NCBI GenBank assembly: GCA_031423975.1
Contig: JANPGQ010000311.1
Location: 1 to 38,551 of the forward strand
Length of the DNA: 38,551 nt
Direction: 5' to 3'
Source: Cytophagales bacterium
Lineage (GTDB): Bacteria; Bacteroidota; Bacteroidia; Cytophagales; Spirosomataceae
Part shown: one piece after another, positions 4,327-31,591 of the stretch
Numbering within the stretch: position 1 is the stretch's first letter
How the letters are laid out: each line of letters begins with the position of its first letter
The notes under the pieces: model-generated
What the model was told of the DNA's origin: nothing
The model's database searches: none
What the model saw: the letters and a program-made list of their open reading frames with translations, nothing else
Made by a program: the position numbers and the translations under genes

Positions 4327-5298
4327 TCACAAATTGCGAGGGTCGATGATGATACTGTCGTCTTGGGGTTTGGTAAAACGATATTTCAACATGAGTTCGT
4401 GCGAACCTATCTGCCCTTGTGTACCTATTGGTGCGTTGTAGGCATATCCAAATTGAATTTTGGAACTCACTTGTATTTGTAGAAATCCTACGAACAAATC
4501 TCCTAATCGTACATTTTTGGAAGCATCTCTGAATTGCTGATTACTACTGCGATAGGATGTTCCGAGGGTAAGTTTTTCTAATAATTCCAATTTTGCGTTA
4601 AAATCAAAAGTAGGAGGGGCGTTTTCAATCACTTTCACCAAAACCGAAGGCTCAAAGCTAATGTATCGGGTGAGTCTTGCCCGATACCCTATTTCTCCAA
4701 AATAATAGCGTACTTGTTTATTCTGCCCAGTCGAGCCATTTGTCTCGGTCAAACTCAAATCGTTGGGAATAAACTGGGGAACTGATAGTCCTATGTAAAA
4801 ATTTTGATTGTTCAAATACACTCCTGCTCCTATATTGGGCAAATATTTATTGACATTTTGGGTAAAATTTGGGTCGATAGGAGTTCCTGTATTTACGCAC
4901 GTAAGACAGGCTCTGAAATTAGTTGCTCCCGCCTGTACGCCCATGGTCAGATTCATGTTATCATCATTCAGTTTTACTTTATAGGCGTAATTCAAGAGCC
5001 CGCCCGTGCTTTTCACAATGCCCGCAATATCATTAAAAAACTGAAAACCAAGACTCACTTTTTCGCTTTTTAGTGGTAAAACTCCAATAATTGCTTGCAC
5101 CTGTGGGTCACCTTCAAAATCTGCCCCCAGCCATTGTTTTCTGTACAAAACGTTGACTTCGGGCGTAGTTATTTTGCCTATTTGAGCAGGGTTTATCGCC
5201 ATAGGATTAAAAATATATTGCGAATAAACGGCTTCTTGTTGGGCTTGAATATGATAAAATCCGAAGAGGTAAATGAGGGTAAAGAATATCTTTTTCAT
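4327..5298 (-). CDS. Type IX secretion system membrane protein, PorP/SprF family
   Basis: Signal peptide then QQEAVYSQYIFNPMAINPA, YRKQWLG, NYAYK, PNIGAGVY, YIGLSVP, EPSVLVK, LGTSYR, FGYAY and GSHELMLKYRF, the characteristic PorP/SprF motif order. Confidence 0.92.
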   Translation of the reverse strand: MKKIFFTLIYLFGFYHIQAQQEAVYSQYIFNPMAINPAQIGKITTPEVNVLYRKQWLGADFEGDPQVQAIIGVLPLKSEKVSLGFQFFNDIAGIVKSTGGLLNYAYKVKLNDDNMNLTMGVQAGATNFRACLTCVNTGTPIDPNFTQNVNKYLPNIGAGVYLNNQNFYIGLSVPQFIPNDLSLTETNGSTGQNKQVRYYFGEIGYRARLTRYISFEPSVLVKVIENAPPTFDFNAKLELLEKLTLGTSYRSSNQQFRDASKNVRLGDLFVGFLQIQVSSKIQFGYAYNAPIGTQGQIGSHELMLKYRFTKPQDDSIIIDPRNL

Positions 5299-5404: not shown

Positions 5405-7837
5405 TTATTTATTAATGCTCTTAGTTTTTACAACTGAATACGGTACACAAACATTTGGTTTACAGCAATCTACGCTAACAAATTCGGCAGGGCAACATCC
5501 TCCTGCGGGACAACTTCCGACTAAGGTAGTAAAGGTATAAGTTCCCACAGAATTTACTCTTAATGTTGATGCCGTTGCACCACTAATTACCGTTCCGTTT
5601 TTATACCATTGAATTCCTTCATAACCCGTTGGAACGGTAATATCATATTCATCACCACTTCCAGAACAGATTTCGATGGGTACATAAAAGCAAGCCGAAG
5701 CATTATCATCTTCCAATATAGGATTGGTGGTGTTACCCGTTGTGTAAGTATTGCCTGGTTTTGAATCTTTATCCACTTGGTCGCAAGTCATTACTTCTGC
5801 AACATTGAAAAAAGTGCCTTGAGCCACAGCCTGAACGGTTATCATCAAATTGATGGTTTGTTGTCCTGCTAAATTTCCAACCGTCCAAATACCCGTAGAT
5901 GAATTATAAGTACCTGTAGAAGTAGCATAAGTTTTAAACAAAACACCTGCTGGCATATAGTCTTTTACACTAACACCCGTTGCTAAATTTGTACTTTGGT
6001 TAGTTAATGAAATGGTATAGGTAATTAAATCACCAATGATAGATTTTTTCTGATTAACCGTTTTTATCAAGGCTAAATCAACTTCTACCTGTGGATTAAC
6101 TATTCCTGTTACCGTGAAAACAGCCCAAGCACTAACGCACTGATTGTTGGTGTTACAAGCCTGATATTGAATAGAGTCTTTACCTACATAACCCGTTGTG
6201 GGCGTATAAGTAAATGCACCATTAGTTGATAAAGTAATACCACCATGGAGTGGTGTTGGTAATGGAGATATTTTCACCGTTAAAGTACCCGCCGGGGTAT
6301 CATTGGCTAATACATTTCCAGAAACTGGGGTATTTACTGGCGTTGAATAAACATCACGTACTGCCACAGGTGCAGTGCTGGTAACGGTGAAAACCGCCCA
6401 AGCTTTTACGCATACATTGTTTACATCGCAAGCCTCATATTGAATAGAATCTTTGCCTACATAACCTGTTGTGGGCGTGTAAGTGAAAGCACCGCTGGTT
6501 GATAAGGTCAAACTGCCATGTAGTGGAGTGGGGAATGGTGATATTTTCACGGTTAAACCTCCGCTTGGTGTATCGTTGTCAAGTACATTTCCAGAAACTG
6601 GCGTGTTGAAAGGCGTTGAATACACATCACGATTTGCCACAGGTTGTACTGGTGGAGGACCCACCGTTGTGAAAACCGCATAAGCCTTTACACATACATT
6701 ATTGCCATTGCAGGCTTCGTATTGAATAGAGTCTTTGCCTACATAGCCCGTTGTAGGAGTATAAGTAAAAGCACCATTGGTCGATAAAGTTAAACTGCCA
6801 TGTAGTGGAGTGGGGAATGGTAAAATTTTCACGGTTAAACCTCCATTTGGTGTATCGTTGGCAAGTACATTTCCAGAAACTGGCGTGTTGAAAGGCGTTG
6901 AATACACATCACGATTAGCTACCGGTGCGGGTCCTGTTACGGTAATAATAATATAGGCTTTATCACAAACACTTCCTGCATCACAGGCTTCGTATTGAAC
7001 GGAGTCTTTACCTACATATCCCGTTGAAGGGGTATAGGTAAATGCTCCCGTTGAAGACATCGAAATACTGCCATGAAGTGGCGTGCCTAATGAGGATATT
7101 TTGACGGTTAAACCCGTTGCTGGAATATCATTGGTGAGAGCATTGCCCGAAACGGCTGTATTAATAGTGGTACTGATATTATCATTAACCGCATCCACAG
7201 TAGGATTAGTACAAAGCGTGTTTAAACAAACGTTATAGCTTTCAAAAACGCCCCCTGCTGGTACAGTTGGGTTACTATAATCGTAAGGATCAGGCGTGAT
7301 TACGATGATTTCGTTCATTCCTGTTACGGGAAAATCCGTATTGGTGTTGTCGGTATGCCATTTAAAATTGACACATCCATCTCCTTTCACAATATCAAAT
7401 TGAATGCAAGCAATGGTGATATAAGCTGTTCCTACTTGTTTAGCACCTGCATTACTGCCTGAATATAAAACATTTAGAGATACCAATCCCATTGTGCCAT
7501 CAGCACTAAGTTTTGACCCCGTTAAGGTTTGAGTTCCGTAGTTGGAATCACTGGCGGGAGCGGCATTCGAGAAATTTTCTTGGCTAATGTTTTTAGGATT
7601 ATTTACAACAGTGGCGTCATAATCAAAACGGAAATTTCCGTCTCCTAATTTGAACGTCGAGTTGGCATCGTGTGCTTTTACCTGTACCTGCAAGACTACT
7701 TTCTTGGTGATACAGTCACTACTTTTTAGTTTGAGTCTAACATCAAACTTTCCATTTGGCGTTGTTTGTGCAATAGACGGCATTGCCCAAAGCAATACCA
7801 TCAGACAAGTTAAAGTGGCGGCTAAAACTTTTCTCAT
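5405..7837 (-). CDS. Secreted 810-aa protein: cohesin-like N-domain, 4 Big_9/cadherin-like Ig repeats, DUF11 domain, Cys-rich C-tail
   Basis: Signal peptide SIA/Q. Repeats of PVA.RD.YSTP.NTPVSGNVL.ND...GAFTYTP.TGYVGKDS.QY.AC. DUF11 pattern VDLALIKTV...GDLITYTI.LTN...ATGVSVKD.MPAG...WTVGNL. Ends CPAGGCCP...CCKPNVCVPYSVVKTKSINK. No type A or type B CTD seen. Confidence 0.85.
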   Translation of the reverse strand: MRKVLAATLTCLMVLLWAMPSIAQTTPNGKFDVRLKLKSSDCITKKVVLQVQVKAHDANSTFKLGDGNFRFDYDATVVNNPKNISQENFSNAAPASDSNYGTQTLTGSKLSADGTMGLVSLNVLYSGSNAGAKQVGTAYITIACIQFDIVKGDGCVNFKWHTDNTNTDFPVTGMNEIIVITPDPYDYSNPTVPAGGVFESYNVCLNTLCTNPTVDAVNDNISTTINTAVSGNALTNDIPATGLTVKISSLGTPLHGSISMSSTGAFTYTPSTGYVGKDSVQYEACDAGSVCDKAYIIITVTGPAPVANRDVYSTPFNTPVSGNVLANDTPNGGLTVKILPFPTPLHGSLTLSTNGAFTYTPTTGYVGKDSIQYEACNGNNVCVKAYAVFTTVGPPPVQPVANRDVYSTPFNTPVSGNVLDNDTPSGGLTVKISPFPTPLHGSLTLSTSGAFTYTPTTGYVGKDSIQYEACDVNNVCVKAWAVFTVTSTAPVAVRDVYSTPVNTPVSGNVLANDTPAGTLTVKISPLPTPLHGGITLSTNGAFTYTPTTGYVGKDSIQYQACNTNNQCVSAWAVFTVTGIVNPQVEVDLALIKTVNQKKSIIGDLITYTISLTNQSTNLATGVSVKDYMPAGVLFKTYATSTGTYNSSTGIWTVGNLAGQQTINLMITVQAVAQGTFFNVAEVMTCDQVDKDSKPGNTYTTGNTTNPILEDDNASACFYVPIEICSGSGDEYDITVPTGYEGIQWYKNGTVISGATASTLRVNSVGTYTFTTLVGSCPAGGCCPAEFVSVDCCKPNVCVPYSVVKTKSINK
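6580..6916. repeat. Near-identical intragenic tandem repeat units (282-nt period)
   Basis: The 55-nt string caagtacatttccagaaactggcgtgttgaaaggcgttgaatacacatcacgatt occurs identically at 6580-6634 and 6862-6916. Confidence 0.85.
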
Positions 7838-7883
7838 GTTTGTATATATTTAATTGAAATTTTTGGTAGTGATTGGTTATTCG

Positions 7884-7954
7884 TTTGCCTTTGTTGGAGT
7901 TTTCTCCAATAAATTGGACGGTAGCTTGTTGGATAAAACTCCAACAAGGGCAAA
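7884..7954. repeat. REP-like inverted doublet (26-bp arms, each itself palindromic)
   Basis: tttgcctttgttggagttttctccaa (7884-7909) versus ttggataaaactccaacaagggcaaa (7929-7954), 2 mismatches. It is flanked by inverted TAACCAA-type heptamers. A related copy lies at 28652-28729. Confidence 0.7.
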
Positions 7955-7997
7955 AAAATAACCCGATAACAAGTAACCAATAACCAATTCCCATTCA

Positions 7998-8912
7998 CTA
8001 ATAATTCACGGTAATGAAACGAGTGAAGTTCTTTCCGTCTGCTCGTTTCACAGCGTAATAATATGTTCCTGGACTTACGGCACGGCTATTATCAAGTCCA
8101 TCTTGATTTGGCTTACCATCCCATTCGTTTTTATAATCGTCTGCTTTGTAAATCACCCTTCCAGAACGGTCAAAAATGGTAATACCCATATTGATATTTT
8201 CAGGATTTTTGATTTCGAATTTATCATTTACTCCATCTCCATCTGGCGAAAACCCCTCTGGAATGAAGAATGATTCGTTGGTTGGCAATTTTGATTCCGC
8301 TGAACAGGTAGATGCTAAATCAATTTTGAGGCTTTCAAAAGTTCCTGTTGCTTTGATATTTTGAAGTTGGAATTCATTATCTCCATTAGCATCTTTGTTT
8401 ATCAAAACTTCGTTCATACCCGTAGCAGGGAAACTCTTTCCCAAGCCTTCTTGCCACTTGATTTCCATGACTGATTTCAAGTCCACAAGGTCGAAACTAA
8501 GGGTTGAGACGGTTAGGTATTGTGTGCTAACCTCAGTAGCACTTTCACCCAAACCACCATAAAAAGTGTTTAAAGAAACGATGCCTTCTTTCATGCGTGC
8601 TGTACTTCCATTCAAATTATGTGAGCCATAATTTTTATCGGAAATTTCACCATGAGATGAGAAAAAGCCTTGCTTTTCGAGGGTTGGATTACTGATAACT
8701 GTGGGATTGTATGCCATTCTGTAATTAGCATCACCCATTTTGAATTTTGATTTTTCATCATGAGCTTTTACTTGTACATCCACTGATAATTTTTTGGAAG
8801 CACAGTCTAATTTCTGGGTGGCGATTCTGACATCGAAAACGCCATTTTGGGCATTCACGGCATGGCTGCCGATGAGCGAAAGCCCTAATATATAAAGATA
8901 TTTTTTGTTCAT
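7998..8912 (-). CDS. 304-aa T9SS substrate: cohesin-like domain fused directly to a type B (gliding motility-associated, CHU_C) CTD
   Basis: Start MNKKYLYILG at 8912, signal peptide VNA/Q. The C-terminus FFIPEGFSPDGDGVNDKFEI...IFDRSGRVIY...YKNEWDG...PGTYYY...FITVNY is the type B CTD pattern. Confidence 0.9.
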   Translation of the reverse strand: MNKKYLYILGLSLIGSHAVNAQNGVFDVRIATQKLDCASKKLSVDVQVKAHDEKSKFKMGDANYRMAYNPTVISNPTLEKQGFFSSHGEISDKNYGSHNLNGSTARMKEGIVSLNTFYGGLGESATEVSTQYLTVSTLSFDLVDLKSVMEIKWQEGLGKSFPATGMNEVLINKDANGDNEFQLQNIKATGTFESLKIDLASTCSAESKLPTNESFFIPEGFSPDGDGVNDKFEIKNPENINMGITIFDRSGRVIYKADDYKNEWDGKPNQDGLDNSRAVSPGTYYYAVKRADGKNFTRFITVNY

Positions 8913-9006
8913 GTCCATTAATTTTTGTGCCTTGTGGCGGTTCGAGAACAAAGTTCATGGTCGGTAAGTATGTTGCAAATACCAAGCCAGTTTTAACACA
9001 GTTCTT

Positions 9007-9066
9007 GGTGAACGGTTTTTCGACTATATTTTTCGCCGTGTACCGTTCACCCTTTACCTTTTACCT
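9007..9066 (-). promoter_or_regulatory. Intergenic hairpin with heptamer repeats just downstream of the 2163-aa gene
   Basis: ggtgaacggt (9007-9016) and accgttcacc (9042-9051) form a perfect 10-bp inverted repeat. The right arm is part of tcgccgt-gtaccgt-tcaccct-ttacctt-ttaccta. Confidence 0.5.
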
Positions 9067-9071
9067 AATTT

Positions 9072-12000
9072 TTAATGCAATACTCCTGAATAACGTCCGC
9101 TATTTTGTTTCCATAAGCTGTTATCCATAAAGTTTGAGTCGGCATCTAAATTGAAATCACTCAATAAATAAATATCAAAACTTCCTGATAAACTCTTCCA
9201 TAGGAGTGAATCTTTGAAATTGATGTCGTAATTATCATTGATAGTAGCTTTTGAACCATCTGCAGCGTACATCACGAACTTAGTACCAACCTGTTTTTCT
9301 CCAAATGATGGAGGGTTTGTTAGCTGATAGCTTTGTTGTGCCGTAAAGTCATACGTAATTTTACCAGCCGATACAGGCACTTTTACGTGCGACATTACCC
9401 CCATGTGATTGCGATGTTCGATAACCACGTAGAATGAACCACTCGGTAAAGTGAAGCATGGATTGACAAAACTAATGTGTCCGTCGCTGTGCAATAAACC
9501 TGCCACACTGAGAGCCTTGCTTGCCTTTGTCGAATCTGTACGAAGCGATACCAAAACCCAATCAACCACCGTAGTAGGATATGCAGTTATGGTTTCTGAC
9601 CCTGTATAACTAAATGGTAATAAATTGTAGGGTTGTCCTCCTGGTGTTGCCACAGCATAATTTCCCACAGGTGTTTGTCCTGGTAATAATCCTCGTTGAT
9701 TCAAAATGGTACTCATCAAACCTGTATTTGAGTCATAAGGTCCTTGAAGAATTACCTTGAAGTCAAACGTAACGCAAGGCTGTTCTAATATAGTAATATA
9801 TGCCGTTGCAGTAGTGCATAAAACTGGCGAACCATTATCACAAACCTTATACGTGAACACATCTGTACCCACAAACGTAGCGTTTGGTGTATAGGTAAAT
9901 GCACCCGTAGTGGCATTGAATACAATCGTTCCGTTGGCAGGGTTGGTCAATTTGGTAAATGCCAATATTTGCCCTGCATCGGGGTCGCTATCGTTCAAGG
10001 CTACTGAGGCTGATACAGATGTGCCTTTGAGCGTAATCTTGTAGTCGTCATTAGCAACTGGTGGATTATTTACTATCCCAACGGTTGCATCTTTTACATT
10101 GATTGTTACTACCGCCGTATCACATTTTGCAGTATTTGAAGCATCACAAACTTTATATTTATAGGTATCAATTCCTACGAATACTGGGTTTGGTGTATAA
10201 GTCATCGTGCCATTTGCATTAGTTACTACTGTACCGTTTAGTAGTGTTCCGATAGCCGTTGGCAAGCCCAAAGTACCTGCTGTATAAGTATCGTTTGCCT
10301 TTACAGAAATAATAACCGCCGTAGCTTTTGGGGTAACAGCATTATCGTCCAATGCCACTGGTAGTGTATTTGCTTGTGGTGTAATGCTGGGATCAATGAT
10401 GGTCAAATATGCCGTAGCATTTGAACACATAATTGGCGAACCATTATCACAAACCTTGTAAGTAAACAAATCACTACCTACGAATCCAGAATTTGGAATA
10501 TAAGTATATGTTCCGTTTGGATTAAAGGTAAGCGTTCCGTTTACTGGGCTTGACGTATTGCTGAAAGTCAAAATCTGTCCTATATTCGGGTCAGAATCAT
10601 TGGTAGCTACTGACGACGTTATGGTTGAATTTTTGTTCAACGTTTTAGCATCGTCCGTTGCTACTGGTGGTTCGTTTTTCACTACATTCATTGACTCATT
10701 TACTGAAACTGTTACGGTTGCAGTACTACATAACGAAGGTGTTCCCGAATCACAAACCTGATACGTGAAGGTATCGTCGCCAGTTGTTCCTGGGGTTGGC
10801 GTATAAGTAATCGTTCCATCAGGATTCACTACTACCGTTCCTTTGGTTGGCGGTGTGGTGATAGTCGGATTCTTCAAAGGCGTACCTTCTGGGTCGGCAT
10901 CATTGGCTAATACATTGATAGTTAAGGGCTTGTCTTTCGGCGTACTCGTATTGTCAGGATTGGCTAATGGTGGCAAATTTGTACCAGAAGTCAATGGCGT
11001 TGTGATGGTAATGGTTACCGTAGCGGTATCACACAATGAAGGCGTTCCGTTATCACAAACCTTGTATTTGAAAGTATCATTACCCGTAGCCGTTGGATTT
11101 GGCGTATAGGTAAATGTTCCGTCTGGCAAAATTGTAACTGTTCCTTTGGTTGGTGTTCCACCCATAATTGGACCCGAAGCTACTAAAGGATTGCCCTCTG
11201 GGTCGGTATCATTGGTCAAAACATTACCTGTTATTGGTGTACCTTTTGGGGTTACGGCAATGTCATTCGTAGCAATTGGAGCATCATTTTTAGGTAATAC
11301 TGTTATTGGAATGATAACATTGGTACAAATTCCTGAAGCATCACAAACTTTTACACAAACCGTATCTTTTCCCGAAAAATTAGGAAGTGGCGTGTAGGTA
11401 ATACAAACCTGATGTGGCGTTGTACTATTATTTACCGTAACCGTAGTAGCACCGTGTTTCGGAGCAGCACATAATGAAACTGTATGCGTTTCGTTGGCAT
11501 CGGGGTCATTTATTGGCAAACAAACCGTTACGGTACTATCTTCAGGTACAATGATTGGCGTTGGCACAATAACTGGAGGGTCTGGTACAGGCGTAACTTT
11601 CACAGGTACTTTGATGGTAGTACAATTTCCATAAGCATCACACACCTTCACACATACCGAATCAGTACCATTAAAATTAGGATTGGGCGTGTAAGTAGTA
11701 CAAACCTGATGTGGTGTTAAAGTATTATTTACCGTGTAAGTAACCGTTCCGTTTAATGCACCACAAGGTGTAACCGTATGAGTATCAACTGCATCAGCAT
11801 CCACAATTGGCATACAGAATGTGATTGGTGTCCCGTCTTCTGGCATCGTTGGTGGCGTAACTGGTGGTGTAATTACTGGTGGTGCTGAATTGATATTCGT
11901 TACCGTCAAAATCACCGTTGCGTTGCTACATAATACTGGCGTTCCGTTATCACAAGTCTTATACGTGAACATATCCGTACCCACATAATTGGTAGCAGGT

Positions 12001-15000
12001 GTATGGGTATATGCTCCTGTTGTTGGATTGAAACCCGTGATTGTTCCGTGCGAAGGAGTTGATAATTGCGTGTAAGTCAATACCTGTCCTGCATTTGGGT
12101 CAGTATCATTTGTGGCTACAAAACCATTCACAGGTACATTTTTAGGTGTTTGCTTACTATCGTCCACAGCATCAGGAGGAAGGTTTACTGCCCCAATTGG
12201 TTTTGGAGTAAGTTCAACCGTTACCGTGGCAGTATCACACTTTGAAGGTATGCCTGTATCACAGATAATATATTTGAAAGTATCCGTTCCCGTAGCCGTT
12301 GGACTGGTTGGCGTGTACGTTACCGTTCCATCAGGATTTACTACTACCGTTCCCTTCGTTGGACCAAAAGCTGGTACAAGCGTTGGAATGGTCAATGGCG
12401 TACCGTCTGGGTCAATGTCATTCGCTTTTACATTAATCACTAATGGCGTTCCTGCTGGTGTAATTACGTTATCATTTACAGCCAAAGGAGGTCTATTTAC
12501 CCCTGGCGTTGAAGTAGGGTCAAATACTTCAATCGCTACCGTTGCCGTATCACAAAGCGTTGGCGTTCCATTATCACAAACACGATATTTGAATACATCC
12601 GTACCCACAAATGTAGGGTTTGGCGTATAGGTATATCCACCTGTTGGCGTTACAGTCAATGTTCCATTAGCTGGTGACTTTACTGGTGTTGTTGATACGG
12701 TCAGTGTTTGTCCTGTGTCAGGGTCTGTATCATTTGTCAAGACGTTTCCAGCTACTGGTATGGCTTTGGGCGTAATGTTTACATCATTGATAGCCACTGG
12801 TTTATCGTTTACAGCCGTTACCGTGACAGGAATTTTTACATCAGTACAAAGCCCCGAAGCATCACATACTTTTACGCAAATGGTATCTACACCATTGAAA
12901 TTAGTAAAAGGAGTATAGGTTACGCAAAGGGTATGCGTTACATTATTTACCGTTGTAGTTGCCGTTCCGTTTTTAGGCGTTGCACAAGGCGTAAGCGTGT
13001 GCATATCACCTACATCTGGGTCAGTTATTGGCATACAAACCGTTTTAGAAGCAGAATCTTCTGGCATCGTAAGCAGTACTGAAATTACGACTGGTGGGTC
13101 TGGTAAGGGCGTAACTGTAATGGGAATAGTTACGTTAATACATTTTCCATAAGAATCACAAATTGTCAAACATACTGAATCTTTACCTGCATAATTTGCC
13201 GTTGGTTTATAATTCAAACAAACTTGATGCGTAGTGTTATTTACAGTTGGAGTGGCTGTTCCATTTTTTGGAACTCCACAAACTGTAACCGTATGCGTAT
13301 CATTTTTATCGGGGTCTGAAATTGGCAAACATAATGTACTAATTGGCGAATCTTCCGCAACCATCTGAGGTGTTGGCGTAACAACTGGTGGGTCTGGCAC
13401 GGGCGAAACCACAACTGGAATTAATACGTTGGTACATAATCCCCCTGCATCACAAACTCTTACACAAATAGTATCCTGACCGTTGAAATTAGGGGCAGGG
13501 CTATAAGTAACACAAACTTCATGCGTAGTATTATTCACAATAGCTGTTGCATTTGAACCCGCTTTTGGCGCAACACATAAACCAGCAGTATGCGTGTCTG
13601 TTCCGTCTGGATCTGTAATTGGTAAACAAATTGTCTTAGCCGCAGAGTCTTCGGGCATAGTAATTTGCTTTGGTAAAACCACAGGAGGGTCATTCACAGG
13701 CGTAACTTTTACGGGTATTTTCACCGTTGTACAAGCTCCATTATTATCACACACTTTCACACAAATCGAATCCGTACCATTAAAATTTGGATTAGGCGTA
13801 TAGCTCAAACAAACCTGTTTGGTGGTAGGATTCGTACTGGCGATAGTAGTTGTTCCGTTGTTTGTCCCACAAATACTTGCGGTGTGCGTATCGGTAGCGT
13901 CAGCATCTGAATAGTTGAAACAAATCGTCAGAGGCGTAGCTGGGTCTTCGGGAGTTGTGGGTGTAACGGCTGGTGGAATAATCACTGGTGCGGTATTAGA
14001 CGGTGCTGTTACTGTCAAATATACCGTAGCGGTATCACACAAAACTGGCGTTCCATTATCACATACTTTATATATGAAAGCATCTGGACCTGTATAGCCC
14101 GTTGTGGGCGTATAGGTATAACCGCCCGTTGGGGTTATAACTACTGTACCATGTGCAGGAGCGGATATTGGTGCGGTGGTGTATGCCAAAATTTGCCCAG
14201 CATTGGGATCAGTATCGTTACCAAAAAATATTCCTGTCAAAGGAGTATTTTTCAGCGTAGTACCTGCATCATCACCTGCAATCGGTTTGTCATTGGCTGT
14301 GATAGGATTATTATCTACCACAACATCAATGGTGGCAGTGGTGGTTGCACACGCTTTTGGCGTAGCATTATCACATACCTGATACGTGAAAACATCTTGC
14401 CCGCTAAATCCTGAATTTGGCGTGTAGGTGTATGTTCCGTTTGGTAAAATAGTTACCGTTCCATTGGTTGGAGGGATTACTGGCGTAGTAGTTGCCGTAA
14501 GCGTTTGCCCTGCATTGGGGTCAAAATCATTACTCAATAAATTGCCAGTAACGGGCATTGAAACATTGGTTTGGGTAACATCGGGTTGAGCAACTGGTGG
14601 TGCATTTACCCCTGGTAAAGATGGTAGTGCCAAGATAGTAATTGTTACCAAGGCAGTATCACACTTTTGTGGAATTACATTATCACAAATTTTATATTTG
14701 AAAATATCTGTCCCCGAATAGCCCGTTGTAGGCGTATAGATATAAGTTCCATTAGCATTTAATACTACTGCACCATGCGTTGGGCTGATAATTGGCGTAG
14801 TGGTAACAATCAATCCAGAGCCAATATCGTTAGTGAGAACTTGTCCAGAAACGGCTATATTTAAGTTAGTAGTATTGATGTCATTTACTGCCAAAATGGG
14901 TGAACAATAGGTACTCATACAAGAATTAGCATTGCCAAAATAACCACTTGCCTTTACGTCTGCTTGTTTATACTCGAAAGAAGGGTCTGTTATAATACCG

Positions 15001-15563
15001 TAAACTTCATTCATACCCGTAACTGGCGATGTTTTGTCATCGTTCCAAGTAAGGTCAAAACAGTCATTTCCATTCACTACGTTAAACTTTATACAAGCTA
15101 CAGTTGCCCATTTAGGAGTAACTAATTTAGCTCCTTGGTTTGAACCAGTATAAAATGTATTCAGCGATACAATTCCTTCGGTAGGACCTTCGCCCGAACC
15201 ATTTAAGTTCTCGAAACCATAATTGGTATCACTCGAAGGAGCTTTTGCTGAATAATTTTCTTGACTCACCAAACTCTGTGCAAAGGTTGGCGAAACACCC
15301 AAAAGCCTCAACTGAGTGGTTTTGAACCGAAAACGATAGTTGGCATCTCCCATCAGGAAGGTGTCGGCAATGGAGGTAGCCCGAACTTGTACGGCAATGG
15401 TGAGCGTTCTGGGTGAGACAGAACAGTCAGTACTTTTGACTGTAAATCTCACATCGAATTTTCCCGCTGCTACGGGATGCATACCACTCTGTGCTCGGGC
15501 GGTACTGATTATTCCCAAAAAGAGAAAAACAGCAGAGAACAGCGTTAATAGCAGTTTTTTCAT
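9072..15563 (-). CDS. 2163-aa secreted adhesin/stalk protein: cohesin-like N-domain, ~17 Big_9/cadherin-like repeats, C-terminal dockerin-like domain
   Basis: Signal peptide ARA/Q. Manual count of 17 repeats (P.A..D...T...ND.DP...G.YTYTP...G.D.F.YKVCD.G.P..CD.ATV). The C-terminal ~235 aa run KVILQGPY...VVDWVLVSLR...EHRNHMGVMS...DINFKDSLLW...DFNLDADSNFMDNSLW. Confidence 0.88.
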   Translation of the reverse strand: MKKLLLTLFSAVFLFLGIISTARAQSGMHPVAAGKFDVRFTVKSTDCSVSPRTLTIAVQVRATSIADTFLMGDANYRFRFKTTQLRLLGVSPTFAQSLVSQENYSAKAPSSDTNYGFENLNGSGEGPTEGIVSLNTFYTGSNQGAKLVTPKWATVACIKFNVVNGNDCFDLTWNDDKTSPVTGMNEVYGIITDPSFEYKQADVKASGYFGNANSCMSTYCSPILAVNDINTTNLNIAVSGQVLTNDIGSGLIVTTTPIISPTHGAVVLNANGTYIYTPTTGYSGTDIFKYKICDNVIPQKCDTALVTITILALPSLPGVNAPPVAQPDVTQTNVSMPVTGNLLSNDFDPNAGQTLTATTTPVIPPTNGTVTILPNGTYTYTPNSGFSGQDVFTYQVCDNATPKACATTTATIDVVVDNNPITANDKPIAGDDAGTTLKNTPLTGIFFGNDTDPNAGQILAYTTAPISAPAHGTVVITPTGGYTYTPTTGYTGPDAFIYKVCDNGTPVLCDTATVYLTVTAPSNTAPVIIPPAVTPTTPEDPATPLTICFNYSDADATDTHTASICGTNNGTTTIASTNPTTKQVCLSYTPNPNFNGTDSICVKVCDNNGACTTVKIPVKVTPVNDPPVVLPKQITMPEDSAAKTICLPITDPDGTDTHTAGLCVAPKAGSNATAIVNNTTHEVCVTYSPAPNFNGQDTICVRVCDAGGLCTNVLIPVVVSPVPDPPVVTPTPQMVAEDSPISTLCLPISDPDKNDTHTVTVCGVPKNGTATPTVNNTTHQVCLNYKPTANYAGKDSVCLTICDSYGKCINVTIPITVTPLPDPPVVISVLLTMPEDSASKTVCMPITDPDVGDMHTLTPCATPKNGTATTTVNNVTHTLCVTYTPFTNFNGVDTICVKVCDASGLCTDVKIPVTVTAVNDKPVAINDVNITPKAIPVAGNVLTNDTDPDTGQTLTVSTTPVKSPANGTLTVTPTGGYTYTPNPTFVGTDVFKYRVCDNGTPTLCDTATVAIEVFDPTSTPGVNRPPLAVNDNVITPAGTPLVINVKANDIDPDGTPLTIPTLVPAFGPTKGTVVVNPDGTVTYTPTSPTATGTDTFKYIICDTGIPSKCDTATVTVELTPKPIGAVNLPPDAVDDSKQTPKNVPVNGFVATNDTDPNAGQVLTYTQLSTPSHGTITGFNPTTGAYTHTPATNYVGTDMFTYKTCDNGTPVLCSNATVILTVTNINSAPPVITPPVTPPTMPEDGTPITFCMPIVDADAVDTHTVTPCGALNGTVTYTVNNTLTPHQVCTTYTPNPNFNGTDSVCVKVCDAYGNCTTIKVPVKVTPVPDPPVIVPTPIIVPEDSTVTVCLPINDPDANETHTVSLCAAPKHGATTVTVNNSTTPHQVCITYTPLPNFSGKDTVCVKVCDASGICTNVIIPITVLPKNDAPIATNDIAVTPKGTPITGNVLTNDTDPEGNPLVASGPIMGGTPTKGTVTILPDGTFTYTPNPTATGNDTFKYKVCDNGTPSLCDTATVTITITTPLTSGTNLPPLANPDNTSTPKDKPLTINVLANDADPEGTPLKNPTITTPPTKGTVVVNPDGTITYTPTPGTTGDDTFTYQVCDSGTPSLCSTATVTVSVNESMNVVKNEPPVATDDAKTLNKNSTITSSVATNDSDPNIGQILTFSNTSSPVNGTLTFNPNGTYTYIPNSGFVGSDLFTYKVCDNGSPIMCSNATAYLTIIDPSITPQANTLPVALDDNAVTPKATAVIISVKANDTYTAGTLGLPTAIGTLLNGTVVTNANGTMTYTPNPVFVGIDTYKYKVCDASNTAKCDTAVVTINVKDATVGIVNNPPVANDDYKITLKGTSVSASVALNDSDPDAGQILAFTKLTNPANGTIVFNATTGAFTYTPNATFVGTDVFTYKVCDNGSPVLCTTATAYITILEQPCVTFDFKVILQGPYDSNTGLMSTILNQRGLLPGQTPVGNYAVATPGGQPYNLLPFSYTGSETITAYPTTVVDWVLVSLRTDSTKASKALSVAGLLHSDGHISFVNPCFTLPSGSFYVVIEHRNHMGVMSHVKVPVSAGKITYDFTAQQSYQLTNPPSFGEKQVGTKFVMYAADGSKATINDNYDINFKDSLLWKSLSGSFDIYLLSDFNLDADSNFMDNSLWKQNSGRYSGVLH

Positions 15564-15643
15564 GCGAAGAATTGTTTAGGATGTACTAATTTATTAAAAT
15601 ATCCATCTACACCTGGCAGGGCGGAGGAGTGGACATACGTTTC

Positions 15644-15832
15644 AATTGATAATTGACAATTGATAGTTGACAATTGATAGTTGACAATTAACTGTGAATG
15701 ATTATTACGATATAAAATGTTTTAGGGATACTTAGGAAGGGAATGTTTTAGTTTCGGGTACTTAAATGTGTGGATTAATATAATTGATAATTGACAATTG
15801 CATACTTAGTATCAATTGTCAATTATCAACTA
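15644..15832. repeat. AATTGAY heptamer array with an inverted copy forming a hairpin
   Basis: Seven tandem heptamers at 15644-15692 (aattgat aattgac aattgat agttgac aattgat agttgac aattaac). A 17-bp perfect inverted repeat: ttgataattgacaattg (15784-15800) and caattgtcaattatcaa (15813-15829). Confidence 0.85.
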
Positions 15833-15834
15833 TA

Positions 15835-18800
15835 TCAATGTGCCACTCCTGAGAAGCGACCATTATTTACTTTCCAAAGCGTATTATCTGAATTATTTAC
15901 ATCCGCATCGAAGTTATAATCTCCTGATAAATAGCGGTCGAAAATACCTGATTGTAACTTCCACAAATTCGAGTCGGCAGCATTGATATCGAAGTTATCA
16001 TTCTGCAATGCCTTCTTATGGTCGGCTGCATACATGACATATTTACCCGCTTTCACTTTCTGACCATACGATGGAGGGTTTGTAAGTGCATAAGAATCAT
16101 TGGTGGTAAAGTCATAGGTAAGCGTACCCGTTGTTACCGTTATTTTCTTATCACTCATTACACCCATGTGGTTACGATGTTCAACCAAAACATAATATGA
16201 ACCGTTGGCAATGGTGAAACATGGATTAACAAACGTTACGTTACCGTCAGCGTGCAGTAAACCTGCGGCTCTGAATACTGGCGTAGTGGTTAATGAATCG
16301 GTTCTTAATGAAATCAATACCCAATCCACTATATCAGTGGCATATCCACCCAATGGCATGGCTTCTGTTCCTGCATAATTCCAAGGAGTTCCCGAATAAG
16401 GCTGACCGTTTGGCGTAGGCGTTGCGGTAATGCCAATTGGAGTTTGTCCTGGTAATAATCCTCTCACATTCAAGAAGTTATTCATCAATCCAGAAACTGT
16501 ATTTAATGGTCCTTCTAATAATACTTTCAGATTAAAGTTTACACAAACACTCAAAATTGGGTCTTTTACAGAGAGATATACCGTAGCAGTATCACATAAA
16601 CTTGGTGTACCATTATCACATACTTTGTAGAGGAATTTATCTGTACCTACGAATGTTGCGTTTGGCGTATAGGCAAACGTTCCATCTGGATTAAAGCTCA
16701 CCGTTCCATTGGCAGCGAGTGTTAATAACGAATACGATAAGGTCTGTCCTGCATTCGGGTCATTATCATTCAAACTTGCACTTTTGTTGATTCCTACACC
16801 TTTGTTGGTGGTGTAAGCATCGTCATTAGCTACTGGTTTGATGTTGCCACCTCCGCTATAATCAGGCGTTACTTTTATTGTTACCGTGGTGGTATCGCAA
16901 AGTGCAGGTGTTTGATTATCACATACTTTATATTTGAATACATCCGTACCCACAAATCCTGTGGCTGGGGTATAAATATAAGTTCCGTTGGTGTTCAAGA
17001 CTGCCGTTCCATTCGTTGGATTCGTCAGTTTTGTGAAAGCTAACGTTTGTCCTAAGTCTGGGTCGAAATCATTTGAAGCCACCGTGCCACTTACTGGAAT
17101 ATTTACCAAAGTCTGATTGACATCGTGTATTGCCGTTGGTTTGTTATTAATTGGCGATACCGTTGGTGCATCTTGGACGTATAAATAAACGTAAGCTATA
17201 TCACATTCGGCAGGTACTTTATTATTACACATTTGATATTGAGCCGAGTCTTTTCCTATAAATCCAGTAGTTGATGTGTAAGAATACGTTCCGTTCGGAT
17301 TTAACGTTAAAGTTCCGTGCGTAGCTGGTGCGAGTAATGAAACCGTTACTGGCAAACCTTTCTTATCGTCATTGGTCAATACATCACCCGTTACCGTAGT
17401 ATTTTTCGGAACGATGTTAATGTCGTCAAATGCTACTGGTGAACTTACCGTTGGAATTGGTGATGGCAACACACTTACGTAAACCGTTGCAGTATCACAT
17501 AAGCTCGGCGTTCCGTTATCACAGGCTTTGTAGGTAAATTTATCAGGTCCTGTATATGCAGTTGTTGGAATATACGTGTATGAACCATCTGCATTTACCG
17601 TTACCGTTCCGTGAACTGGATTCGATACCTTCATGAATGAGAGCGTTTGTCCAGTATTTAGGTCGCTATCATTTGGTGCTACTGTGGCAGTTTTTGCAGT
17701 ATTGATATTAGTAACAATAGCATCATCCTGAGCATTTGGAGCATCATTTCCTCCCACTGGACTCAGTTTAGGCGTTACGTCAATTGTTACACTGGCAGTA
17801 TCACAAAGCACTGGCGAACCTGTATCACAAACCTTATAAGTAAATTTATCTTTACCGATAAATCCACTATTTGGTGTGTAAGTAAATGTTCCGTCTGGAT
17901 TAAATACTAATGTACCATTGACTGGATTTGTCAATTTAGTAGCCGTTAAAATTCCTCCTTCTGGATCGGTATCATTATTGGTTACTTTACCCGAAACTGG
18001 TATATTCACCAAGGTCTGAGCCACATCTGCACTGGCAATTGGTTTATCATTTGCGGTATTTGGCAATGGTGCAACGTTAATATATAACCACGCTTTACTA
18101 CATTCTGCGGGTACTTCGTTATTACAGATTTGGTACTGAACCGAATCTTTACCCACAAATCCAGTGGTTGGAATATATCCATACGTTCCATTAGGACTGA
18201 TGGTTAATGAACCGTGCTTGGCAGTGGTCAATTGCGTAACCACCACTGGCAAACCTTTCTTATCATCATTGGTCAATACATCTCCCGTTACCGTTGTGTT
18301 TATCAACGTATTGTTAATATCATTGACTGCCAAAGGCTGCGTTGATGATGGTGATACGGTCAGATAAATCGTTGCGGTATCACATTTCACTGGTGTGCCT
18401 GCATCACAAACTTTGTAAGTAACGGTATTGCCACCTATTGGTTTACCCGTCAATGGGTCAATGGCTGGCGTGTAGGTTACATTACCCAAAGCATCAATCG
18501 TTACGTTTGGATTACCACCTAACTTGGTGAATGCCAATGGCGTACCTTCTGGGTCTTTATCGTTTCCACTTACATTGTACGTTACTGGTTTACCCTCAAT
18601 TCCCAAAATGGCATCATCAATTGCCACTGGTGGCTGATTGACGGCTGGATTTGGTGTTACAGGCTCAACCGTGATAATCACTTTTGCGGTATCACACAAT
18701 ACTGGCGTTCCGTTATCGCATACTTTGTACTTGAATACATCCGTACCCGTAAATCCTCCGTTTGGCGTGTAAGTGAAAGTACCATTCGGGTTCATCGTTG

Positions 18801-21800
18801 CCGTTCCGTTGGTTGGATTCGTCAATGTGGTGAATGTGAGCGTTTGACCACTATCTGGGTCAAAATCGTTGATACTGGCATTACCACTTACAGGTGTACC
18901 TGCGTTGGTTTGTGTTACGTCATTGAATGCCACTGGTTTATCATTCGCACCCGTTGCTGGGTCAGGAATAACCTTGAATGTTACCCAAGCCGAATCACAT
19001 TCTACTGGCACGGCGTTGTTACAAATCTTATATTTTACCGAATCCACACCCACAAAATTAGGGTTTGGCGTATAGGTATATGAGCCGTCAGGATTCAAGG
19101 CAAATACTCCATTTTTAGCAGGCGTAATTACCGAAGGCGTAACTGGCAAACCTTTCTTATCATCATTGGTCAAAACATTTCCTGTTACTGGCGTATTCAC
19201 ACGTACCACAGCAATATCGTCTTGTGCATCTGGCTGTGTCATAGATGGCTGGGTTCTTAATTCAACTGTTGCGGTATCACACAATACTGGCGAGCCGTTA
19301 TCACACACTTTGTATTTCACCGTGTAAGTTGCTCCTGGCAATGCAGGGTCAATTCCTGGTGTCCAAACCAAAGTACCCGTTGGCGACAATGTTACCATTC
19401 CTTTGGTAGGTTGATTCAACAAAGTATAAGTCAAAGTCTGTCCTGCGTTAGGGTCACGGTCATTTCCTATTACCGAGGTTGTAACAGTTTGTCCACCCGT
19501 CGAAACTACTACATCGTCTCCTGCATCAGGTTTCAAATTAACCGTTAGCGGAAGCGTTGGGTCTAATGGTACTATTTTGATTGTTACCGTAGTAGTATCA
19601 CAAAGACTCGGCGAGCCATTATCACAAATTTTATACTTGAAGACATCCGTACCTACAAAAGTAGGGTTTGGTGTGTAGGTATAAGTTCCGTTGGCATTTA
19701 CCGTAACCGTTCCATTAGCAGGGTCAGAAATCTTACTTGTGGTGAGGGTCTGTCCTAAATCTGGGTCATAGTCATTGCCCAAAACTGAACTCGAAACAGG
19801 CGAACCTTGCTGTGTAACCACATTGTCTGGCATTGCCACAGGTTTGTCATTGCCAGCCGTTGGATATGGAATGGTATTGATATACAACCAAGCCGAATCA
19901 CATTGTACTGGAATTAGGGCATTACAAACCTTGTATTTCACCGAATCACGACCTACATAATGCGGTACGCCGCCCGTAGGATTTGGCGTGTAGGTATAGC
20001 TTCCATTTGGATTAAATACAATCGTTCCATTTTTAGGATTCGTCAATTGTGAAGCCATCAGTGGATTGCCCTTAGAATCATCATTGGTCAAAACATTTCC
20101 TTTTACTGGCGTATTAGGCGAAGTAATGGCGATGTCGTTTTGAGCCACGGGATTCGTGATTTTATCATCCGTTTCTATCGTGATAATCACCGTTGCCGAA
20201 TCACACAATACGGGTGAACCGTTATCACAAACTTTGTATTTGAACGAATCATTACCCACAAAACCAGCAGTTGGTGTGAAGGTATAAGTACCCGTTGTTG
20301 GATTAAATCCTGTGATTGTTCCGTGTGCAGGATTACTTAATTGACTGAATACCAAGGTCTGACCAGCATCTGGGGCGGTGTCGTTTAGGGCAACCGTTCC
20401 TGATTTTGGCGTATTGATTTTCGTTAATAAAGCATCGTCCTGAGCAGCTGGTTTACTGTTTGCATTCAATGGCGTAATGACTGGCGTTACGTCAATTTCA
20501 ACTTTTGCCGAATCGCATTTTACTGGATTCCCGTTATCGCAGGCTTTGTAAGTGAAGTAATCTTTTCCTACAAAACCAACAGTTGGCGTATAAATATAGC
20601 TTCCGTCAGGATTCAACGTTACCGTTCCATGTGCAGGGTCGGTCAATTTCGTTGCCACAAGAACATCACCCAAATCAGGGTCCACATCATTGCCCAACAC
20701 ATTGCCTTTTACGGGAACACCTGCTTCGGTTTTTGCCACGTCATTATTGGCAATTGGCTTATCATTTTGAGGCGATGGCACATCACTTACATTGAAGTAA
20801 ATGTAGGCAGTATCACATCTCACCATTGGGATTTCGTTTACGCAAATCACGTATTTCACCGAATCTTTACCCACATAACCCGTAGTTGGTGTATAGATAA
20901 ACGAACCGTCTGGATTGATAGCAATGATACCATGTTTCGGAGCAGTTCCCGATGGTAAACCTACCACCAGAGGATTGCCTTTTGAATCATCATTGGTCAA
21001 AACATTACCCCCAACAGGCGTGTTTTTAATCGTCATGGCAATATCATTCACCGCATCTGGCTTGTTAGCATCAGGTTGTTTTGGCGGTAAAACTGTCAAA
21101 TAAACCGTAGCCGTATCGCACATTACAGGCGTTCCGTTATCACAAATCTTGTACGTGAACGAATCAGTACCAATAAAAGTAGCATTAGGTGCATAGCTGA
21201 ATGTTCCGTTGGCATTCATGATTACCGTTCCGTTGGCAGGATTCGTTAATTTGCTGAATGCAAGCGGTTCGCCGCCCGACGTATTACCATTCGGGTCGCT
21301 ATCGTTTTGAGCGGAATTACCGTTTACTCCTACGCCTTTATAAGTTACATAGGCATCGTCATTAGCAACAGGTTTGTCGTTTGAATTAGCACTTTTTGGC
21401 TTCACTTCAATTGTTACTGTGGCTATATCACACTTCACTGGCGTTCCGTTATCGCATACTTTGTATTTAAACATATCAATACCCGCAAAGTCCGTAACTG
21501 GAGTGTAGGTATAAGTTCCGTCTGGATTGAATACCAAGATACCGTCATTAGGGTCTGTTAAGTTGGTATAAGTCAATATCTGAGCAATATCTGGGTCGAA
21601 ATCATTATTGCCCACACTACCATTTACTGGCTTATTCAGGTACGTTACCGATACATCATTACTTGCCACAGGCGGATTATTATCAACCATTGAAGGTGGA
21701 TAAGGTAATACGTTCAGATATATCCATGCGGTATCACATAAACTGACAGTATTGCACAGAATGTATTTTGTCGAATCTTTACCGACAAAATTGGCTTTTG

Positions 21801-24800
21801 GTACATAGGTATAATTGCCGTTTGGTAATAAGGTTATCGTTCCGTTTTTTGGAGGAGTAGCCGTTACCAAACTGGTTGTAACTACCTGTCCTGCCTTATC
21901 ATCATTCGTTAAAACATTTCCAGAAACTGGGGTATTTTTAAACGTCAAGTTAATGTCATTAATCGCATTTGGGTTATTGGTAACTGGTGGTATTATTGTT
22001 AAAAATACCGTTGCAGTATCACATAAACTCGGCGTACCATTATCGCATACTTTATACAAGAATTTATCTGTACCTGAATAACCAATAGTTGGGGTATATA
22101 CAAATTGACCCGTTGTTGGATTAATCGTTACCGTACCGTGTGCGGGGGCAGTTACTGGCGTATTTGAATACGTCAATGTTTGTCCTACATTCGGGTCAGA
22201 ATCATTTGGTTTCAATTGATCTGTTACCGCAGTATTCATGGCTGTGATGGCAGCATCATCTTGGGCATTTGGTTTGTCATTGGCAAGTTCGTTGATGTCG
22301 GGACTAACTGTGATGCCTACGCAAGTTGAGTCGCAAGCATTAGATGGATCGCAGATTTTATAACAGAATACATCATTGCCCACAAAATTTGCATTTGGCG
22401 TATAAATAAATGTTCCATCTGGATTAAATACTATCGTTCCATTGACAGGGCTTTTCGTTAAAGTAGCCGTTAAAGGGTCTCCATCTGGTTCGAGGTCATT
22501 GTTTGTAACCTTACCCGAAACAGGAACATTCTTCAAAGTCTGAACCACATCACTATTAGCAATGGGTGGGTTGTTTCCGTTCACAAATGTGCCAGGCAAG
22601 ATGGTGACAATTATCCAAGCCGAATCACATCTTGATGCTGCATTACAAATCACATATTGAGCCGAGTCTTTGCCCACAAAACCAGTTGCTGGGGTGTAAG
22701 TATAAACTCCATTCGTTGCAACTGTCAAGTTTCCATAAATTGGATTTTTTACTAAAATCGGATTCGTAGTAAATGGCAAACCGTTTCCAGTATCATTCGT
22801 AGCGGTATTTCCTGAAACTGGTTTGTTTTTTAAAGTTACGTTAATATCGTTCTGAGCGTCTGGCGTTGGTGCTAACACTACTACATAAACGGTTGCGGTA
22901 TCACACAAAGTTGGACTACCATTATCACAAACCTTATACTTAAACTGGTCTGTTCCGAAGAATCCCGTAGCAGGGGTATAAGTATAATTTCCAGCCGCCG
23001 TAATAGTTACCGTTCCATGTACAGGAGGCGTAGTTGGCGTGGTAGTGTAAGTCAAAGTATTACCATTCGGGTCGGTATCATTAGACTTTAATATACCCGA
23101 AACTGGAATATTAAGATTTGTTAAAGCTGCATCGTCTTGTGCATTTGGACGGTCGTTCGTAGTGCCATTATAGTCTGGCGATACCGTAATTACTACCGTA
23201 GCCGTATCGCAGGCACCCTTTGTATCACAAACTTTATACTGAAATTTGTCTCTACCTGTGAAATTAGGGTCAGGCGTATAAGTATAAGTTCCGTCTGTGT
23301 TTAGCGTAACTGTTCCATTATCAGGCTGTACAATCACCGAAGCGGATAACACATCACCGTCTGGGTCAATATCGTTATTGGTAACTTTGCCCGATACGGG
23401 TATGTTTTTCAAAGTCTGCCCTGCATCGTCGCTGGCAACAGGAGCATTATTGATAAAACGAATTGGGTCAATTACATTGATGGTCAGCCAAGAAGTATCA
23501 CAAAGCGAAGCCGTATTACAAATCACATATTGAACAGAATCCTTACCCACAAAATCAATTGTAGGCGTGTAGGTATATGAACCGTTGGCATTGAGGGTAA
23601 TAGCTCCGTGCAATGGGTCCACCAAAGCATACGGTGTTAAAGTAAAGGCTAAACCTCCACCGTTATCATTGGTCAAAATATTACCCGAAATAGGGTTGTT
23701 TTTTGTTGTAATATTCACATCAAGTTGAGCATCAGGCACGGGAGGTACAACTACGATGTATACCGTTGCGGTATCACATAAACCTGCGGCATCACAAGCC
23801 TTGTATTTTAATTGGTCAGTTCCAAAATAGCCCAAAGTTGGGGTATAAGTGAAAGCTCCATTGACAGCCAAAGCAAAAATTCCGTGGGTAGTTGGCGATG
23901 TCATCGTAGTAGTTAAAACATTACCGTTCGGGTCAGAATCGTTTAAACGAACATTACCCGTAACGGGAACACTCAAGGTAGTACGATACGAATCGTCTTG
24001 AGCGAATGGAGCATCATTGGTGGTTATCCCATTAGCATCTGGTCTGATATAAACTACTGCTTTTGCTGTTGTACACTGGTTCAAATCATCACAAACTTGA
24101 TATTCAAAAGTATCTGTTCCGATATATCCTGGGTTTGACGTGTAAGTATATGAGCCATTGGCATTGATACTCACCGTTCCGTGACTTGGATTACTGACGG
24201 GGATAAGCGTATATTTCAACGCCCCATTTTCAGGGTCAAAATCGTTGCTCGCCAAATTACCCGAAACAGGGATATTCATATTGGTTTGAGCCACATCGTT
24301 TTGAGCAATCGGTGGTAGGTTTGTGGTAATGCTTGGTTTATAAACGTTCAAGTATAAAGTGGCGGTAGTACACAAATTATCTACCGAACAGATTTTATAA
24401 TTAATCGAATCTTTACCCACAAAATCAGTAGATGGCGTGTAAGTATATGTTCCGTTTGGATTGAAAACTATCGTTCCATGATTTGGCGTTGTTGTCGCTG
24501 TAAAGACATCCGTTGTGGTAGTTTTTGTATCATTAGTAGCCACAGAGCTACCTACTGGCACATTTACCAAGGTTACGTTGATGTCATTAATAGCCAATGG
24601 AACGGGTTTAATCGTTACAAGCACCTTAATAGTTGTACAGGTTGCAGTAACCGCATCGCATAGGGTTACACAAACAGAATCTGTACCCACAAAGCCAGGT
24701 TTTGGTTTGTAGGTTATACAAAGTTGTCCGCTTTCAATCGTGGCTAATGCCGTTGCTCCCGCCACCTTTGGATAACCTGGGCAAGAAGCAGCCGTAGCAC

Positions 24801-28776: not shown

Positions 28777-28800
28777 AAATTTAATTCTGATTGTTTGGTA

Positions 28801-28882
28801 GTACACTCCGTTTTATCGGAGGTACTAAAATTTATTCTGAACGAAACTCATCGCATGAACTCAGTTTAGCCATGCCATGAGT
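28801..28882 (-). promoter_or_regulatory. Two intergenic hairpins between the 854-aa and giant adhesin genes
   Basis: actcatcgcatg (28846-28857) and catgccatgagt (28871-28882), 1 mismatch. Also gtacactccg/cggaggtac at 28801-28825. Confidence 0.5.
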
Positions 28883-31465: not shown

Positions 31466-31539
31466 TGTATTAATATTTAATCCAGCCAAAGCCAGAAGTT
31501 TGAATGTATTTATTTTTAAATAGTTAATTCTATAAATGC

Positions 31540-31591
31540 AAAAAGCACAATCTATCAAGCAGTATTACTATTGCTTGATAGATTGTGCTTT
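31540..31591 (-). terminator. Strong intrinsic-terminator-like hairpin upstream of the first gene of the adhesin cluster
   Basis: Perfect 20-bp inverted repeat aaagcacaatctatcaagca (31542-31561) and tgcttgatagattgtgcttt (31572-31591). It ends in T5 on the minus strand, ~75 nt before ATG 31465. Confidence 0.7.

Follow-up and report, generated by a model that had tools for sequence, protein, structure and literature searches.

Domains with predicted cohesin and X-dockerin folds suggest plug-and-socket linkage of giant surface proteins in Bacteroidota

What connects three adjacent proteins that begin with one shared domain to two giant proteins that end in another? This question is raised by a gene cluster on a 38,551-nt contig (JANPGQ010000311.1 of assembly GCA_031423975.1; the whole stretch is hereafter the window) from a Cytophagales bacterium of the Spirosomataceae. 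Three consecutive genes, A, B, and C, encode proteins with a common N-terminal domain, which we call X, and genes C and D encode very large proteins that terminate in a second domain, Y. The sequence-only reading had singled out X and, by eye, likened it to cohesins; it left out Y, whose copies lie at 9075–9782 in gene C and 15838–16551 in gene D. Structure prediction assigns X a cohesin fold and Y a type II-like X-dockerin fold, and from these models together with the layout of the genes we consider it probable that X is a socket and Y a plug, linking the proteins of the cluster into a surface chain: a PorP-family outer-membrane barrel to B, the cohesin of B to the tail of C, and the cohesin of C to the tail of D.

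Domain X occupies 7199–7768 in gene A, 8292–8849 in gene B, and 14892–15491 in gene C, all on the minus strand. The three copies align over about 185 amino acids at 36–45% identity, each after a signal-peptide-like leader, and the motifs quoted in the sequence-only reading are present in all of them; the upper coordinates (7768, 8849, and 15491) correspond to the Gln after an Ala-Gln junction in A, B, and C, respectively. BLASTP related the copies (A/B, E 6e-40; B/C, E 8e-30), and DNA similarity was limited to matches of 55 bases or fewer, indicating that the copies are old paralogues and leading us to reject a recent duplication of these genes. A profile of the three copies matched just these three sites in the genome. 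No Pfam or NCBIfam family matched X in the window proteins, and searches of PDB sequences with X profiles gave nothing significant.

To assign a fold, we modelled the copy from gene B with AlphaFold from a 70-sequence alignment, obtaining a beta-sandwich at a predicted local distance difference test score (pLDDT) of 93.1. Foldseek listed cohesin entries in 37 of 37 rows (E 2.8e-6 to 5e-4), and in a VIA search of 48,161 chains the top 20 matches were all cohesins (Z 13.3–9.1), led by 6kgc_A (Z 13.3, root-mean-square deviation [rmsd] of 2.7 Å over 140 residues). The first non-cohesin fold followed at Z 8.8. Cohesins, rather than a lectin, a carbohydrate-binding module (CBM), or an unrelated fold, thus filled the top ranks, and none of the 50 VIA and 37 Foldseek rows bore a CBM or lectin title, a result that leaves some likeness to such folds possible. 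The assignment extends to the copy in A by its 39% identity to the modelled domain and to the copy in C by homology with the others. The conserved strand G-D-A-N-Y-R-F-x-Y-D aligns with beta-3 of the solved cohesin 1g1k (G-T-C-N-F-Y-L-G-Y-D), and five polar residues (D41, N43, R45, S93, and N95), each 90–100% conserved, alternate along the predicted beta-3 and beta-6 strands when mapped by strand register. Cohesins bind dockerins through a face made of strands 8-3-6-5, and on this topology the sheet that carries the five residues would be the putative dockerin-binding sheet. The cohesin-like call therefore held at the level of fold but not at that of sequence: X fails the Pfam Cohesin cut-off, so that on the strength of the model it is a new sequence family with a cohesin fold and, by score, not a member of PF00963. 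In the ESM Atlas, X matched unnamed clusters (0.90–0.91) and one cluster at 0.87 carrying Cohesin on 14% of its members, which serves as a lead only. Noise-level Pfam matches of 14 of 70 family members to Exo_endo_phos2 (best E 0.003) were rejected because the fold of X is all-beta.

Domain Y spans about 236 amino acids, and its copies in C and D are 58% identical. The model of the C copy (pLDDT 94.1) comprises a beta-sandwich (strands within residues 4–171) followed by two helices (189–198 and 218–227), each preceded by an Asp/Asn loop, as expected of an X-module joined to a dockerin; the dockerin part would lie at about 9102–9260 in C and 15865–16023 in D. In the VIA search, the whole model was spanned by 3kcp_A (Z 10.4, rmsd 3.4, 150 aligned residues) and 5g5d_B (Z 10.1, rmsd 3.9, 151 aligned), and above Z 5 the only matches were X-dockerin dyads of Clostridium thermocellum CipA; the next fold scored Z 4.6. 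In Foldseek, chains of type II cohesin–X-dockerin entries likewise made up all ten of the best rows, including 5k39_B, 4u3s_B, 5m0y_B, and 2b59_B. In the second calcium loop, D-x-N-x-D-x-x-x-N-x-x-D, five positions are 92–100% conserved across 52 rows, and the canonical form was found in 112 of 120 homologues (here and below, figures for Y homologues refer to the best 120 of 280 matches). A search of PDB sequences with the Y profile returned nothing significant. Together, the models and loop motifs predict that Y is a type II-like X-dockerin plug.

We scanned 200 genomes of the family, counting a Y match as strong at E<1e-60 and using 106 of the 110 rows of the X list after dropping four fragment rows. 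X was found in 58 genomes and strong Y in 46, all 46 of which also have X; strong Y is absent from the 142 genomes in which X has no match. With a limit of 1 kb downstream on the same strand, 53 of the 72 strong Y domains, in 45 of the 46 genomes, are followed by an X, which starts 64–653 bases away (these counts leave out the weaker Y matches of genomes G118 and G080, with which they become 55 of 74 Y matches and 47 of 48 genomes). Within the source genome, X and Y are confined to this locus. The full order of Y, X+Y, X with a sorting C-terminal domain (CTD), X+CVP, and PorP recurs in loci L004–L007, and in L034 with one extra X open reading frame (ORF); the shorter order of X+Y, X+CTD, and PorP occurs in L011 and L012. 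In a 400-genome sample of the phylum, X matched in 14 other genomes. In five of these (L097–L100 and L153) the X gene has a type A sorting domain and is directly preceded by a Y gene, and three have a weak Y, X, and CTD on a single chain. Loci L089–L093 and L095 hold a more distant, widespread Y-like family (E ~1e-20 to 1e-27) whose C-terminal tail differs and whose genes are not followed by X.

The genes of the cluster can be read in terms of this pairing. Seven minus-strand genes, with gaps of 94–271 bases, run in the order E, D, C, B, A, a PorP/SprF barrel, and a second outer-membrane barrel. Gene B (7998–8951; start likely Met 8918 or 8912) encodes a protein of about 300 amino acids with a signal peptide, X, and a type IX secretion system (T9SS) sorting domain of type B (CHU_C/TIGR04131), scoring 71.6 bits with PF13585 and 47.3 bits with TIGR04131. 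With a signal peptide recognised by eye, a type B CTD, a linked PorP/SprF gene, and the T9SS translocon SprA encoded in the genome, it has the features of type B cargo and is likely the surface anchor. The PorP/SprF-family barrel (4327–5298; PF11751, E 7e-60; TIGR03519, E 4e-66), two genes downstream of B, is its likely shuttle and anchor; excerpts of PMC9143113 and PMC12618676 describe type B cargo as binding PorP-like barrels. Gene C (9072–15563) encodes 2163 amino acids comprising a signal peptide, X, 17 Big_9 repeats, and Y; with socket and plug at opposite ends, the protein likely acts as an adaptor or extender. Gene D (15835–28806; start likely Met 28614) is a 4323-aa ORF with an unclassified N-terminal region, 27 Big_9 repeats, and Y, likely the distal adhesin; Ig-like repeats are the sole Pfam content of both C and D. 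Gene A (5405–7837; 810 amino acids) carries a signal peptide, X, four Big_9 domains, DUF11, and a CVP-CTERM putative sorting motif (5420–5470), and is likely an alternative cohesin carrier. This motif, NF058574, was found nowhere else in the genome, and in relatives the CVP-CTERM tail often terminates proteins with X arrays.

In the chain that we propose, B would be exported by the T9SS and stay bound to the PorP barrel, and its cohesin would bind the X-dockerin of C with calcium. The 17 Ig-like repeats of C would raise a second cohesin, to be bound by the X-dockerin of D, so that every Y would find its partner X in the gene that follows, and the 27 repeats of D would form a stalk projecting the unclassified, putatively adhesive tip. 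A would act as a second carrier, sorted through its CVP-CTERM motif, and supply the third cohesin. The export of C and D is the weakest step, because T9SS substrates are said, in an excerpt of PMC9251779, to need a folded CTD, and C and D have no match to PF18962, PF13585, TIGR04183, or TIGR04131 at E<=0.1. Either they ride on a carrier or Y is itself a signal; our favoured guess is that they would cross the outer membrane via the T9SS while bound to the CTD-bearing cohesin carrier.

Several observations weigh against this reading. At the sequence level, PF00963 matched neither the window proteins nor anything in the whole genome, the 5 of 70 X-family members that it did match were weak (best E 0.0021, under the cut-off), and hhalign aligned X with 20 Pfam-type Bacteroidota cohesins at a probability of 8.5% over 34 columns, which include the G-D-A-N-Y-R-F-x-Y-D strand. 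Y has no Pfam match: Dockerin_1 (PF00404) was found in none of 20 close members and nowhere in the genome, and 7 of 10 chosen distant Y domains matched it weakly (E 0.0006–0.08), all under the cut-off. The first calcium loop of Y keeps D175, N188, and D191 and contains an insertion. In genomic context, the family genomes are related and thus not independent samples, making the X–Y coupling a pattern and not a statistic. Nineteen of the 72 strong Y domains have no adjacent X gene (13 of these loci were fetched, and an X neighbour was absent from each), and seven weaker Y relatives have no X downstream. Conversely, genome G041, a single contig at 99% completeness, has an X+CTD gene but lacks any Y match, and the neighbourhoods of the X genes in G328, G367, and G517 yielded no Y. 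In the flanks retrieved for the Larkinella and Fibrella loci no PorP was detected, and in the window itself gene A interrupts the adjacency of PorP and B. Orphan Y genes in genomes with X elsewhere are compatible with one anchor serving several clients; X without Y is at odds with the pairing model, unless the partner is too divergent for the Y profile.

Across the wider family, X and Y occupy opposite ends of proteins. Among 255 X proteins, 216 have one X and 39 have arrays of two to seven; the source genome has a single X per protein, and arrays are confined to its relatives. The C-terminus of an X protein is formed by a CTD of type A or B, by CVP-CTERM, by Y, or occasionally by some other anchor. 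Y lies within five residues of the C-terminus in all 120 homologues, none of which has PF18962 or PF13585. The cargo of these homologues is mostly stalk repeats, with a PF05572 peptidase in 23 and a CotH kinase in four, and no glycoside hydrolase catalytic family was seen among them. The architectures of X and Y proteins form a grammar of anchors, adaptors, scaffoldins, and clients.

Further variants of these architectures were seen. Scaffoldin-like forms (P0188, P0175, P0193, P0190, P0221, and P0240) comprise proteins with seven or five tandem X domains, proteins with four or five X domains and a C-terminal Y-like domain, and a 423-aa minimal X+Y adaptor. Five other proteins (P0168, P0195, P0200, P0202, and P0223) combine X with IPTL-CTERM or a hydrophobic C-terminal tail and have no T9SS domain, sequence features that suggest use outside Bacteroidota. 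In five Larkinella loci (L032:414–1054, L035:9255–9850, L036:9219–9860, L039:9154–9870, and L044:8165–9840), the upstream X gene breaks off at nearly one position, about residue 150, and continues out of frame into a Y tail or stalk repeat, with three distinct right-hand junctions, each at a short shared sequence; the collapsed form occurs in six family genomes. These junctions look like the repeated loss of an adhesin island of tens of kilobases from one hot spot.

Binding between X and Y need not follow the strict order of the proposed chain. C could build a long filament by docking its X, head to tail, on the Y of further copies of C, with B as the base, D as the cap, and A as a terminator or soluble sink. 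C does carry both modules, as do 30 of the 120 Y homologues, the invariant polar strand residues are common to all three X copies, and no D-like gene was present in the fetched flanks of L011 and L012, where X+Y is followed by X+CTD. We nevertheless judge this arrangement improbable in view of the Y domains themselves. Position 10 of the two Y loops is mostly symmetric (F/F in 71 of 112 and A/A in 17 of 112), and it is Phe in both loops of C and Ala and Asn in those of D. In a tree of Y domains (52 rows, none dropped; two long branches flagged), the C-type and D-type sequences of Arcicella formed separate clades with support of 100/100 and 95/93. Two well-supported clades that differ at position 10 suggest two specificities.

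We give equally little credence to a second alternative, in which Y works on its own as a C-terminal module for folding or secretion (a T9SS signal so far unrecognised) and X either shares no more than its gene cluster or binds another partner. The invariable C-terminal position of Y with no known CTD after it, a conserved tail beyond its second helix, and the existence of orphan Y and orphan X genes are all in keeping with such a role. The structural matches of Y to X-dockerins, however, far exceed those to T9SS CTD structures (8qb1, Z 3.5 by VIA; 8glk_D, E 0.22 by Foldseek), and 45 of the 46 genomes have a cohesin-fold gene directly after Y. The notion that X is a ligand-binding adhesin tip, recognising carbohydrate or a host surface through a reused cohesin fold, is very unlikely: in 247 of 255 proteins the first X begins no more than 110 residues from the N-terminus, atop stalks, the alignment shows conserved aromatics (Y75, Y98, W/Y112, and W133), and adhesin domains appear in the VIA list at Z 8.8 and below, but the twenty best structural matches are cohesins, the invariant beta-3 and beta-6 residues are polar, and an X-dockerin partner adjoins the X genes.

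The preferred reading, ordered pairing of X sockets with Y plugs, has its closest counterpart in clostridia. Clostridial anchors of this kind are held by SLH domains or sortase. The type II cohesin/X-dockerin system (the C. thermocellum CipA X-dockerin with SdbA or ScaC; PDB 2b59, 5k39, 5g5d, and 3kcp) shares the cohesin fold, the C-terminal X-module with a two-loop dockerin on a large modular protein, the small single-cohesin anchor, and adaptors of the X+Y type. The system described here differs in its Gram-negative host, its T9SS sorting domain and PorP, and its Big_9 stalks in place of cellulases; structure-based sequence identity is 5–16%, the modules are larger (X, 187 versus about 140–170 amino acids; Y, 236 versus about 156), the first calcium loop is extended, and both domains fall under Pfam cut-offs. 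Type II cohesin–dockerin pairs serve surface attachment, according to an excerpt of PMC12484212, and the X/Y system works like such anchoring. It is not a cellulosome, because the source genome has neither glycoside hydrolases borne on dockerins nor a scaffoldin with several cohesins.

Other non-clostridial systems provide partial parallels, which we draw from excerpts of their descriptions. In Chlorobium chlorochromatii, Cag_2038 and Cag_2037 (bioRxiv 10.64898/2026.03.19.712371) are adjacent genes, one for an Ig-stalk protein ending in a dockerin and the other for a protein that starts with a cohesin; their proposed role is to tether a giant surface protein. Compared by description only, that pair differs from X and Y in having modules that InterPro detects, RTX/alginate lyase cargo, a proposed type I secretion route, and the dockerin protein as the proposed anchor, and the excerpt describes no T9SS CTD anchor or three-tier chain. 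Candidatus Stygibacter (Cloacimonadota; PMC8542988) and the "planctosome" (PMC6461901) are presented as genome-inferred cohesin–dockerin assemblies of Gram-negative bacteria, the former with a scaffoldin ending in a CTD; peptidase cargo is a further likeness, to some Y proteins. Those assemblies are described as using enzymes and plain dockerins found by domain search, whereas here a Pfam-missed X-dockerin dyad is joined, in the window, to non-catalytic cargo, and dozens of genomes keep the order of plug gene and socket gene. Gene B resembles T9SS type B cargo with a cognate PorP/SprF (SprB–SprF and PG1035–PorP; excerpts of PMC9143113 and PMC12618676) in having PorP downstream; unlike in those pairs, the CTD sits on a carrier of about 300 amino acids and is absent from the giant proteins. 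Cohesins that Pfam detects are common in the phylum (90 of 301 Bacteroidota genomes), so a Bacteroidota cohesin is no surprise in itself. In a term search of the cellulosome genome survey PMC11557425, "Bacteroid-" occurs in the reference list alone, and a literature search whose coverage excluded most subscription journals and supplements found no account of the X/Y family or of CTD-free T9SS co-secretion.

The remaining features of the locus complete its description. The window contig belongs to a 5.19-Mb genome (95% complete) whose closest named relatives are Arcicella (70–81% identity in domain X). A single contig of an independent sequencing run spans 6883–16600, with 59 differing letters and 42 gap letters, arguing against an assembly artefact. 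Gene E (28901–31558, minus strand; an 885-aa ORF) is a paralogue of the N-terminal part of D (34% identity to D residues 7–601 over 649 columns, with DNA blocks at 67–78% identity); it has no X or Y match and no stalk array, no Pfam family covers it or the N-terminal region of D (~27000–28800), and it could be a spare or swappable tip. Promoter and terminator scans were at chance (46 versus 38.1 +/- 5.4 and 10 versus 11.2 +/- 3.6, respectively). In RNA library X18, a contig from a relative at ~91% identity crosses 7133–8994, and library X13 holds a 254-base piece, although such contigs cannot prove transcription. The intergenic segments at ~7870–7960 and 15630–15700 have dispersed copies in the genome (19 matches on 13 contigs and 10 matches on seven contigs, respectively) and are probably REP-like. 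Near the cluster, on the plus strand, lie genes for a lamin-tail-domain protein with a type A sorting domain (33285–34490) and a DUF5117/DUF5118/Met-zincin metalloprotease (35141–37762).

These results assign folds and a likely partner to two widespread, unannotated domain families of Bacteroidota, moving the clostridial type II cohesin/X-dockerin anchor to a Gram-negative T9SS setting with adhesin-like and peptidase cargo. They also pose a question for the T9SS, namely by what route proteins of several thousand residues without a known sorting domain reach the surface. Tentatively, the X/Y system may exemplify a general plug-and-socket display in Bacteroidota, in which signal-less cargo (giant adhesins, pappalysin-like peptidases, and CotH kinases) ending in an X-dockerin would hitchhike on small cohesin-CTD carriers and then be stacked by cohesin/X-dockerin classes into multi-tier chains or scaffoldin-like arrays. 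Cultured carriers of X exist (Arcicella aurantiaca DSM 22214 and strains of Runella and Larkinella), and divergent X–Y pairs, which seem to fall into specificity classes, could find use as orthogonal connectors for proteins. For the organisms themselves, X and Y make up a set, missed by standard annotation, that is likely to join giant adhesin-like proteins end to end and fasten them to a small surface anchor.

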